Source of the DNA: a virus
Direction: 5' to 3' (one strand)
Virus genome (UHGV): UHGV-0107401
Length of the DNA: 19,872 bases
Part shown: piece after piece, positions 13,858 to 14,474 of the stretch
How the letters are laid out: each line of letters begins with the position of its first letter
How positions within the stretch are numbered: position 1 is the stretch's first letter
The notes under the pieces: generated by a model
What the model was told of the DNA's origin: nothing
What the model saw: only the letters and a program-made list of their open reading frames with translations
Database searches by the model: none
Position numbers and translations under genes: made by a program

Positions 13858-14358
13858 TCATTGAAAAGCAAGCGCGTTATGAGGATTTTTTGCAATTTTC
13901 CTCACATTTTCGCGATTGTTAAACGCATTTTGCAGCGGTTGGTACAAACAGAACAGTGAGGCATTGATGATTTGCTTCACCTCTCTACGGATTGTCGAGA
14001 TGCTTGGGTGTTTATACTGATTTCCGCCACGCGTCTTCATCAGGCGAGGCTTACTTACTGCATGCTGCCATGATGCAATTCGGATCTCGCTGGAGTTACA
14101 AACGTAGTAGGCGAAGACAACCCGCCAGGCATTTTCATCCACATTCTTCAGATAGTGACGAATGACAGCATCAATGAGCATCCCGTCATCATCACTACAT
14201 ACCGGTCGTGATGCTTGCTGGGGCTCGACGGTAGCCATGAATCTGGCAATCATGTTGATCATCGCTTTATCAATCTTGCCGGTCTGGCACCATGCGCCCC
14301 ACAACTGGAGCCACTGGTCTACCCATTGATGCTGGTCGTTGGTTAATTCCAGTTTCAT
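13858..14358 (-). CDS. Q: Late-gene antitermination protein Q (phage 82 / DLP12 QuuD family), 166 aa
   Basis: Motifs WLQLWGAWCQTG and SRPVCSDDDGMLID match my recollection of the QuuD pattern (...WGAW... / ...RPxCxDDDxMxI); sits between rusA and the lysis cassette with terminator-bearing leader downstream. Confidence 0.75.
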   Translation of the reverse strand: MKLELTNDQHQWVDQWLQLWGAWCQTGKIDKAMINMIARFMATVEPQQASRPVCSDDDGMLIDAVIRHYLKNVDENAWRVVFAYYVCNSSEIRIASWQHAVSKPRLMKTRGGNQYKHPSISTIRREVKQIINASLFCLYQPLQNAFNNRENVRKIAKNPHNALAFQ

Positions 14359-14474
14359 TATGCGGCTTCCTTCTGAGGCTGGTTGGTTTTGGTCTGGCTG
14401 TGCTTTGCTATTGGCGGCAGGTTGGCGCGCTTAACGCTTTCGGCCTGATATCGGGTTATCTCGTCTCTGGTCAC
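14358..14474 (-). CDS. Small ORF (38 aa) translationally coupled between rusA and Q (possible YlcG-position peptide)
   Basis: GTG start overlapping rusA stop (GTGA) and TAA stop overlapping Q start (TAATG); hand translation MTRDEITRYQAESVKRANLPPIAKHSQTKTNQPQKEAA. Coding status unproven. Confidence 0.3.
   Translation of the reverse strand: MTRDEITRYQAESVKRANLPPIAKHSQTKTNQPQKEAA

Follow-up and report, generated by a model that had tools for sequence, protein, structure and literature searches.

A conserved 38-codon phage gene at the start of antiterminator Q and its candidate role in Q translation

Translationally coupled genes are classically exemplified by the pairs trpB-trpA and trpE-trpD, in which termination and reinitiation occur at ATGA or TAATG, whereas TnaC, SecM, and ErmCL are arrest peptides or regulatory leaders. 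The timing of both late transcription and lysis in lambdoid phages, Shiga-toxin phages among them, is governed by the amount of Q. We analyzed a 38-codon open reading frame (ORF) that lies between a RusA-like gene and Q in the virus genome UHGV-0107401, with the whole stretch of 19,872 nucleotides being referred to here as the window.

Close homologues of the encoded peptide have been named 'PPVAKH motif-containing phage-derived small protein' by PGAP, as in WP_094158653.1 (MTREQIARYQAESVKRANLPPVAKHSQTKTNQPQKEAA) and WP_089518698.1, from which the window peptide differs at 5 and 6 of 38 positions, respectively. All three belong to one family of 239 clusters, nearly all members of which are 38 amino acids long, and the window gene shares with this family its length, the PP[VI]AKH motif, the slot upstream of Q, and an overlapping start and stop. 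In the window copy, GTG replaces ATG as the start codon and PPIAKH replaces PPVAKH, neither of which is a material difference. For E. coli 88COLEC, PGAP had already annotated an identical ORF with the same coordinates, as the RefSeq 'hypothetical protein' WP_000196300.1. Given that the gene is already present in RefSeq with a family name, our analysis is a confirmation and not a discovery. An hmmscan search of NCBIfam release 20 yielded no family for the window peptide or for either of the RefSeq proteins so named, literature searches on PPVAKH and on peptide fragments gave no match, and those on ylcG and nin-region coupling gave nothing relevant. Reference records for phi80 and HK639 do not include this gene, and it is present in the phi80 remnants of DH10B, DH5alpha, and TOP10.

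Two other small ORFs lie close to Q-type genes. YlcG of the E. coli K-12 prophage DLP12 (46 amino acids, phrog_2705) is situated, like the window ORF, between rusA and a Q homologue, quuD, with a 4-nt start/stop overlap (ylcG at 573730-573870, end of rusA at 573733). The initial annotation had likened the position of the window ORF to that of the small protein between rusA and quuD, a comparison that holds for the location after rusA and the 4-nt overlap but does not extend to sequence. BLASTP of the window peptide against YlcG returned no local alignment at E ≤ 100, and the window peptide matches no PHROG. Moreover, a gap of 85 nt lies between YlcG and quuD, and the two are not coupled. By these comparisons YlcG is a positional analogue and not a homologue.

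NinZ of Salmonella phage P22 (59 amino acids, phrog_1402) is likewise encoded immediately 5' of a Q-type gene, gene 23; its stop overlaps the gene 23 start as ATGA, and the Shine-Dalgarno (SD) sequence of gene 23 is located in its last codons. NinZ is longer than the PPVAKH proteins, its 5' overlap with ninH is 20 nt compared with 4 nt in the PPVAKH family, and it ends in ...DDAA* with the junction GCTGCATGA, compared with GCCGCATGA in that family. An hhalign comparison of the family alignment with NinZ detected no homology (probability of 0.4%, E of 0.16). Homology of the window peptide to either YlcG or NinZ was thus rejected.

Position and junctions of the small gene

The gene order in the window is RusA-like gene, small ORF, and Q (Table 1), and the minus strand reads ...ggggagtgcgcaccGTGAcc...gaaggaagccgcaTAATGaaactg. 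Start/stop overlaps at both ends of the small ORF, as described in the initial annotation, were confirmed. The GTG at 14474-14472 has TG in common with the TGA at 14473-14471 of the RusA-like ORF, and the last A of the TAA at 14360-14358 is the first A of the Q ATG at 14358-14356. The Q protein of the window is 95% identical to that of HK639 and 47% identical to that of phage 21. The small-ORF frame is also open further 5', up to a TTG at 14534 inside rusA; the resulting 58-amino acid version was rejected, given that the 5' extension ranges from 0 to 67 codons in relatives and that the start codon is kept at the position aligned with GTG 14474.

Table 1. Coordinates of the small gene, its neighbors, and associated sequence features in the window.
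Feature	Coordinates	Strand	Remarks
Small gene of 38 codons, GTG start, TAA stop	14358..14474	-	Peptide VTRDEITRYQAESVKRANLPPIAKHSQTKTNQPQKEAA; 38 codons plus stop on translation
GTGA junction, small-ORF start on RusA-like stop	14471..14474	-	Same 4-nt ATGA/GTGA overlap in 105/110 loci
TAATG junction, small-ORF stop on Q start	14356..14360	-	Q-start overlap in 108/110 loci
RusA-like Holliday-junction resolvase gene, 119 aa, upstream	14471..14830	-	Pfam RusA, 5.7e-14; phrog_140, 1e-29; PGAP name
Antiterminator Q gene, 166 aa, Q21-type, downstream	13858..14358	-	Pfam Phage_antitermQ PF06530, 2e-21; phrog_943, 1.5e-70
GGGGAG, SD sequence of small ORF	14483..14488	-	In end of RusA-like gene, 8 nt before GTG
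AAGGAAG, SD sequence of Q, within small ORF	14366..14372	-	Codons K35-E36
A/C-rich, T-depleted 3' half, codons 21-38, directly 5' of Q start	14361..14414	-	Predicted single-stranded
Codons 9-21, YQAESVKRANLPP	14412..14450	-	C-terminal part of predicted helix plus first half of PP[VI]AKH

Conservation of the reading frame

Chance alone left a 37-codon frame open in 43% of shuffles that preserved its own T-poor composition and in 16% of random sequences composed like the flanking genes, and the ORF of a single sequence is therefore weak evidence alone. The double overlap had been called unlikely by chance; a frame this long is not uncommon in one sequence, and it is conservation over 110 related loci that places the observation beyond chance. 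The ORF was intact in every one of these loci and exactly 38 amino acids long in 103, with all indels being in frame (36, 37, or 40 amino acids) except in one unverified phage record. ATG or GTG was found at the aligned start position in all 110 loci, and the overlap with the Q start took the form of TAATG (1 nt) in 33 loci and ATGA (4 nt) in 75. The predicted SD:anti-SD duplex of the small ORF in the window is -7.6 kcal/mol; an SD sequence preceded the ORF in 11 of 11 upstream contexts (predicted, -5.9 to -11.1 kcal/mol), and one of -5 kcal/mol or better was present at 98% of loci compared with 15% of random positions.

The pattern of substitution was that of a coding sequence. The pN/pS ratio was 0.27 in the ORF frame, matching the 0.28-0.33 of the genuine genes on either side. 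Four of the five alternative frames had ratios of 0.87-2.07; the remaining one, which is antisense, had a ratio of 0.36 but contained stops in 38 of 90 unique sequences. The two other sense-strand frames were interrupted by stops in 87-90 of the 90 sequences. Changes were in excess at third codon positions of the ORF frame, and substitutions were conservative (N/S, L/M, V/I, A/V). The comparative checks proposed in the initial annotation, namely conservation of the frame in homologous regions and the comparison of synonymous with non-synonymous changes, thus came out in favor of coding. On the basis of this comparison, the 38-codon frame is a real prophage gene, and its peptide is shown to be under protein-level purifying selection, with one reading frame in every relative and with its own SD sequence and start codon.

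For 1832 pairs of loci whose neighboring genes are unrelated on either side, identity was ~25% in the flanks and ~93% over nt 25-114, with this 90-nt island ending at the small-ORF stop and identity being random right after it. So sharply bounded an island between unrelated flanks is what would be expected of a module joint, and the conserved 90 nt might instead be an untranslated, non-coding element: a recombination linker between nin and Q, a Rho-loading rut site, or the terminator of an anti-Q antisense RNA. The sequence is indeed C-rich, G-poor, unstructured, and rut-like; a homing endonuclease gene has inserted in the island, such elements targeting conserved DNA; and the openness of the frame in 43% of shuffles would be consistent with absence of translation. 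Such an element does not account for the third-codon-position excess and low pN/pS of the ORF frame, with higher ratios in four other frames and stops in the fifth, for natural indels in multiples of 3 with the single exception mentioned above, for the start codon and SD sequence retained in 11 unrelated upstream contexts, or for the stops in the two other sense-strand frames. Rfam gave no match inside the small ORF. A role as linker or rut site could coexist with coding but not replace it, and we consider an untranslated element highly improbable.

The terminator version of this proposal drew on a terminator-like antisense hairpin at 14363-14381(+). This hairpin depends on the rare CCT codon of the window and is retained neither in the consensus nor in relatives, and antisense folds did not outperform shuffles (z = +0.9 to -0.1); an anti-Q RNA terminator was therefore rejected. 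An antisense ORF of 84 amino acids at 14292-14546(+) was also rejected, with stops in 8 of 90 relatives and a pN/pS of 2.1.

The peptide and its relatives

AlphaFold2 predicted a helix at residues 3-17, with mean pLDDT values of 93 (residues 1-10) and 89 (residues 11-20). The predicted layout of the peptide is thus an N-terminal helix followed by PP[VI]AKH and a basic disordered tail. P20, P21, A23, and K24 were invariant in the sampled alignments, and the V/I position of the motif was occupied by V in 77 and by I in 13 of the 90 unique sequences. Codons 9-21 showed a pN/pS of 0.25 and a pS of 0.23. Distant homologues of 45-46 amino acids retain YQxES[VI]xRA, and comparison with them marks codons 9-21 as the protein-level core; the helix core, PxVAKH, and genomic position are all kept in these proteins, with the tail diverging and the 3' geometry changing to a 12-nt gap or a 32-nt overlap.

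No significant match to the peptide was detected in Pfam, NCBIfam, or PHROGs, and a PDB sequence search was also without match. A profile search of 1.84 billion representatives gave 26 matches, which were short proteins of the same narrow family with the exception of a spurious repeat protein, P0175; longer domain-bearing relatives were not found among them.

These features raise the possibility that the main role of the gene is to specify a trans-acting micro-protein, which might bind a host or phage partner at the early-to-late switch, with the overlaps reflecting no more than the usual packing of nin genes. Purifying selection at the amino acid level (pN/pS of 0.25-0.31), the conservative nature of the substitutions, the confidently predicted helix, and the retention of YQxES[VI]xRA and PxVAKH in distant homologues in which the tail and 3' junction vary all fit this explanation, as do the 4-nt overlaps among other nin genes of the same operon. 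The searches of family libraries and of PDB sequences revealed no partner, fold relative, or family of known function. We regard a micro-protein role of this kind as the principal function as rather unlikely, in part for reasons that concern the position and nucleotide sequence of the gene, as described below.

A constant slot upstream of Q

The small ORF was located directly upstream of Q in 110 of 110 loci. The Q genes behind it belong to four unrelated families (PF06323, PF06530, PF03589, and phrog_753), and the genes ahead of it comprise 11 unrelated neighbors; NH2-terminal variants of the peptide go with the upstream gene family and not with the Q family. A trans-acting peptide alone leaves this constant slot unexplained. 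Most of the 105 phage records with a Q21-type Q were without the small ORF, with only HK639 having one, and Q expression therefore does not require the ORF as a general rule. Natural variants also exist in which codons 33-36, AAGGAAG among them, have given way to an HNH endonuclease gene; Q is still in place in these variants.

The region next to Q is also distinctive at the nucleotide level. An identical AAGGAAG precedes the start codon in all four Q families, and codons 35-38 vary least (pN of 0.013, pS of 0.09). The 3' half of the gene consists of 43% A, 35% C, 20% G, and 2% T, and its C-minus-G value ranks among the highest 0.2% of windows for the same strand. Its mean predicted unpaired probability is 0.69 compared with a background of 0.47, with only 0.2% of background windows being as open, and no other 54-nt segment within 1.7 kb is predicted to be more accessible. 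The minimum free energy of the sense strand was no better than that of shuffles (z = -0.02). The value of pS was only 0.12 in codons 21-38 and 0.16 in the island, compared with 0.31-0.56 in the neighboring genes. A micro-protein role explains neither this two- to threefold greater conservation of synonymous sites nor the extreme A/C composition of the tail. The low pS could stem from repeated recombinational homogenization of a shared joint and not from a function at the RNA level.

Taken together, we favor, with a probability of roughly 0.55, the reading that these 38 codons form a real and translated phage gene, located last among the small genes of the nin region, and serve in addition as a portable cassette for translation initiation at Q and for its coupling. 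Ribosomes coming from the preceding gene would restart at the overlapping GTGA or ATGA, translate the 38 codons, and then terminate on the stop that overlaps the Q ATG, a few bases past the SD sequence of Q. The unstructured A/C-rich 3' half would keep the Q initiation region open, and Q synthesis would thereby be linked to how the early-right operon is translated, equally for any Q allele recombined behind the cassette. We infer the coupling to Q from the geometry of the junctions. Given its good SD sequence in an open region, Q could also initiate independently of the small ORF. Because the peptide itself is conserved, it probably has a further function of its own; the two roles suggested in the initial annotation, translational relay to Q and a micro-protein, are each consistent with our results and probably coexist. 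In both junction geometries, the Q frame is -1 relative to the small ORF. A peptide-Q fusion produced by programmed -1 frameshifting was rejected, with no canonical X_XXY_YYZ heptamer being present in the 90 unique sequences.

A bolder version of the coupling scheme is that the gene is a portable Q-expression cassette that gates the early-to-late switch, with a ribosome sensitive to the nascent peptide or to EF-P, together with the A/C-rich tract, setting the number of ribosomes at the Q start. The timing of lysis would then be set alike whichever unrelated Q family sits behind the cassette. Alternatively, the peptide might be a small partner of Q-modified RNA polymerase. We consider these proposals doubtful.

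Comparison with leader peptides and coupled gene pairs

The leader peptides TnaC, SecM, and ErmCL offer a functional analogy, in that each is encoded by a short ORF just 5' of the regulated gene. The window gene might correspondingly act in cis as a regulatory leader, with translation of Q, and so the timing of the late genes, being gated by the nascent peptide or by a ribosome that pauses on the PP motif or on the stop overlapping the Q start. Like such leaders, it has a stop that adjoins the downstream start, and a ribosome held there would cover the Q SD sequence; its first 8 residues are variable and the ~30 residues at its C terminus, a stretch roughly as long as the ribosomal exit tunnel, are conserved; the diprolyl motif is invariant, and nucleotide-level conservation exceeds that of the neighboring genes. 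On the other hand, the peptide shows no similarity to known arrest peptides and no match in the family or structure database searches, and no RNA structure sequesters the ribosome-binding site of Q, which lies in a region predicted to be open. In distant homologues, conservation is lowest in the tail, which would be nearest the peptidyl-transferase center, and codons 33-36 are lost in the HNH-insertion variants. The PP motif (codons 20-21) is situated 42 nt upstream of the Q SD sequence, too distant for a ribosome paused there to occlude it. A cis-acting leader of this type thus appears very unlikely.

Under the coupling-cassette reading that we prefer, a conserved small gene always positioned on the Q start, regardless of Q family, is a candidate for a shared point of control over Q translation, and it also illustrates cleanly how a coding linker can occupy a mosaic joint. 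The classical trp-type pairs resemble the small gene and its neighbors in their stop/start overlap of 1 or 4 nt and in the location of the downstream SD sequence inside the upstream ORF. Unlike in those pairs, the middle ORF here is a conserved mobile cassette that is common to unrelated gene pairs and whose peptide is itself conserved.

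Junctions and distribution of the small ORF

In this region of the window the genes lie on the minus strand, which reads ...atcGGGGAGtgcgcaccGTGAccaga...cagAAGGAAGccgcaTAATGaaactg... The initial annotation had proposed a 38-codon ORF coupled to both of its neighbors, and the sequence contains it exactly with both overlaps (GTGA and TAATG): the GTG start (14474-14472) overlaps the TGA stop of the RusA-like gene (14473-14471), and the last base of the TAA stop (14360-14358) is shared with the ATG of the gene for antiterminator Q. The translation product is VTRDEITRYQAESVKRANLPPIAKHSQTKTNQPQKEAA (pI 9.8, GRAVY -1.3). 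This double coupling had been considered unlikely to arise by chance. Given the T-poor composition of the region, a 37-codon frame was open in 43% of shuffles, as well as in 16% of random sequences with flank composition, and a doubly overlapping frame in one sequence alone is weak evidence. The argument was upheld instead by 110 loci with the small ORF collected from phages, E. coli genomes, GTDB species representatives, and IMG/VR, among which a 4-nt ATGA or GTGA overlap with the upstream stop was found in 105 and an overlap of the small ORF stop with the downstream start in 108 (ATGA in 75, TAATG in 33).

Features of the window and of compared loci
Feature	Source	Coordinates	Strand	Remarks
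Small ORF, 38 codons	window	14358-14474	-	GTG start, TAA stop
RusA-like ORF, 119 aa	window	14830-14471	-	Pfam RusA 5.7e-14; phrog_140 1e-29
Q gene, 166 aa	window	14358-13858	-	PF06530 2e-21; phrog_943 1.5e-70
A/C-rich tract, last 54 nt of small ORF	window	14361-14414	-	A 43%, C 35%, G 20%, T 2%
Antisense ORF, 84 aa	window	14292-14546	+	rejected
Terminator-like hairpin	window	14363-14381	antisense	rejected
ORF preceding RusA-like gene	window	14827-15189	-	phrog_131 'HNH endonuclease', strong match, 8.1e-31; Pfam YbcO sub-threshold, 20.9 bits (cut-off 29.9)
ORF in nin region, 215 aa	window	16346-16993	-	16-residue motif resembling HNH_3 endonuclease
isrJ-like region	window	13773-13845	-	Rfam isrJ sub-threshold, 28.3 bits (gathering score 37; E 0.009)
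Intrinsic-terminator-like hairpin and T-run	window	13797-13774	-	end of isrJ-like region
Small ORF	phi80, NC_021190 (L006)	1501-1617
Small ORF	HK639, NC_016158 (L001)	3067-3183
HNH_3 variant	E. coli GCA_012738675.1, contig DABDAC010000036.1 (L111)	2501-3196		also in proteins P0122, P0129, P0133, P0135; PF06323 Q overlapped
Distant locus	GCA_900452275.1 (L116)	2610-3296		split PF06323 Q downstream
NinZ, 59 aa	P22 (L112)	37010-37189

The same 241 nt are present at 100% identity in E. coli 88COLEC, in which PGAP called the small ORF, with identical start and stop, as the 'hypothetical protein' WP_000196300.1. Newer RefSeq annotations give homologues that differ at 5-6 of 38 residues the name 'PPVAKH motif-containing phage-derived small protein'; no model in NCBIfam release 20 matched even the RefSeq proteins bearing this name, and a literature search found the PPVAKH motif and fragments of the peptide in no paper. 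The ORF is present but unannotated in the reference records of phi80 and HK639, is carried at 94.8% identity by the phi80 remnants of DH10B, DH5alpha, TOP10, and NEB10-beta, and was found in 116 of 5426 complete E. coli genomes. Among 5.8 billion proteins searched, 239 clusters were recovered, nearly all of exactly 38 aa, from Enterobacter, Escherichia, Citrobacter, Klebsiella, Salmonella, and relatives. Only 26 hits were returned by a profile search of 1.84 billion representatives, all of them short family proteins except one spurious repeat protein. The family is narrow, enterobacterial, and prophage-borne. The gene already stands in RefSeq with its family named, and, given the pattern across loci, it would be a reasonable target for small-scale experiments.

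For the ORF preceding the RusA-like gene, the 120-aa reading from a TTG start, as listed by the ORF finder, is probably overextended, because PGAP calls a 94-aa version in the identical 88COLEC sequence. The isrJ-like region lies just 3' of the Q stop and may be the late-promoter leader or tR' region acted on by Q.

Evidence that the frame is coding

Frame conservation in related loci and the balance of synonymous and non-synonymous changes, to which the initial annotation had looked for a check, both came out in favor of the ORF. It was intact in all 110 loci and exactly 38 codons long in 103. The others had 36, 37, or 40 codons, and indels were therefore in frame, the sole exception being an 'UNVERIFIED' Klebsiella phage record whose copy has a frame-shifted tail. 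Pairwise pN/pS was 0.27 in the small ORF frame, comparable to that of the neighboring RusA-like and Q genes (0.28-0.33), versus 1.05 and 0.87 in the two other sense frames; the antisense frames gave 2.07, 0.36, and 1.37, with stops in 38 of 90 sequences for the frame at 0.36. Among the 90 unique DNA sequences, minor-allele counts for codons 9-38 rose from 76 and 77 at the first and second codon positions to 223 at the third, and common replacements were conservative (N/S, L/M, V/I, A/V, Q/H). Each of the 11 unrelated genes found 5' of the ORF supplies a Shine-Dalgarno (SD) site of -5.9 to -11.1 kcal/mol, with a site of -5 kcal/mol or stronger in 98% of loci versus 15% of random positions. An ATG or GTG occupies the aligned first position in every locus. 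Given all these features together, the frame is very likely translated, and our comparisons show it, as judged from sequence, to be a genuine small coding gene that is conserved and has initiation signals of its own.

Two other frames were rejected. A 58-aa version starting at TTG was excluded because the open frame upstream varies (0 to 67 codons) while the start codon stays at the aligned position. Stops in 8 of 90 relatives and a pN/pS of 2.1 mark the antisense 84-aa ORF as an artefact of the complementary strand.

A conserved island between unrelated modules

The upstream genes belong to 11 unrelated families, including RusA-like (61 loci), a 127-aa phrog_1621 protein (24), NinG (7), Lar (6), and E. 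coli-type RusA (3). Downstream, every locus has a Q antiterminator, drawn from four families without BLAST similarity between them: PF06323 (67), PF06530/Q21-type (20, the window included), PF03589/lambda-Q-type (17, phi80 included), and phrog_753 (6). In total, 21 distinct upstream-by-downstream combinations were observed. Given that only HK639 among 105 phage records with a Q21-type Q has the small ORF, Q in general does not require it. At the distant locus in GCA_900452275.1, the divergent tail of the ORF overlaps by 32 nt a Q that is probably a pseudogene, as it is split into 50-aa and 173-aa pieces.

In 1832 locus pairs with unrelated flanking genes on both sides, identity was ~25% upstream, ~60% in codons 1-8, ~93% over nt 25-114, and random directly past the stop. 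Which N-terminal variant an ORF has (TRDEITR, TRDQI[IV]R, NHxDFLR, and others) goes with the family of its upstream gene, not with that of Q. This places the left mosaic joint within the ORF, at about codon 8, whereas the right one coincides exactly with the stop/start overlap. These comparisons show an ORF that behaves as a mobile cassette between unrelated modules, always placed on the start of Q and carrying its SD.

An HNH_3 endonuclease gene that has its own SD and ATG is inserted in frame after codon 32 in some prophages of E. coli and Enterobacter. Codons 33-36 are replaced, GCCGCATGA and the Q overlap are kept, and annotation treats the result as a 231-aa 'HNH endonuclease' fusion. From this variant, the conserved island would seem to be a target for homing and, if such prophages are viable, the last residues and AAGGAAG would seem to be dispensable. 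The 215-aa ORF in the nin region of the window resembles, by motif alone, the same HNH_3 endonuclease.

Candidate role at Q and comparison with known small ORFs

Synonymous diversity of the island (pS 0.16) is two- to threefold below that of flanking genes of the same phages (0.31-0.56), and is lowest in codons 22-38 (0.12) and 35-38 (0.09). AAGGAAG (codons K35-E36) is the SD site of Q in all four Q contexts. A non-coding element is highly improbable in view of the coding pattern; the sense RNA is not unusually structured (z = -0.02), and within the ORF there is no match to any Rfam family. The A/C-rich tract ranks among the top 0.2% of windows on its strand for C minus G, and no other 54 nt within the surrounding 1.7 kb are predicted to be as single-stranded (unpaired probability 0.69 versus 0.47). 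These features are consistent with an open region before Q on which ribosomes could land, and equally with a Rho-loading site or with simple homogenisation at a recombination joint. Its residues (K, N, Q, T, P, H) are mostly those with A/C-rich codons, and distant homologues keep the composition of the tail with a diverged sequence. The antisense terminator-like hairpin was rejected, as it needs a rare CCT codon of the window, is absent in the consensus, and lies on a strand that folds no better than shuffles. A -1 frameshift into Q was likewise rejected, no slippery heptamer being present.

We infer, with a probability of about 0.55, a cis role in which ribosomes are delivered and positioned for Q. 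Termination-reinitiation at the small ORF stop, together with the open A/C-rich leader, would supply these ribosomes, and synthesis of Q would be tied to translation of the early operon.

AlphaFold2 and the family alignment yielded a confident helix at residues 3-17 (mean pLDDT, 93 over residues 1-10 and 89 over residues 11-20) and, beyond it, a basic tail that is disordered. The distant family members, 45-46 aa long, retain the helix core YQxES[VI]xRA and PxVA[KH]H, the 5' overlap, and the order NinG or YbcO, ORF, phrog_753 Q, with altered tails and 3' geometry (12-nt gap or 32-nt overlap). This makes the helix the oldest of the conserved elements, and its conservation argues that the peptide itself does something. 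A purely trans-acting micro-protein is a possible but less likely reading; a nascent-peptide or pausing gate seems quite unlikely.

The initial annotation was supported overall in its interpretation, except for the equivalence it drew with YlcG of DLP12. YlcG follows rusA with the same 4-nt overlap but has no sequence relationship to the small ORF and is 85 nt away from the Q homologue quuD. NinZ of P22 has an ATGA overlap with gene 23 and ends in ...DDAA* (junction, GCTGCATGA), resembling the ...KEAA* junction of the small ORF family (GCCGCATGA); homology is undetectable, and the likeness may reflect convergent constraint from the SD of Q and the overlapping start. Unrelated families of small ORFs that abut Q are thus a recurrent feature of lambdoid phages, and the one described here appears, from its junctions, to be more tightly coupled than either YlcG or NinZ.
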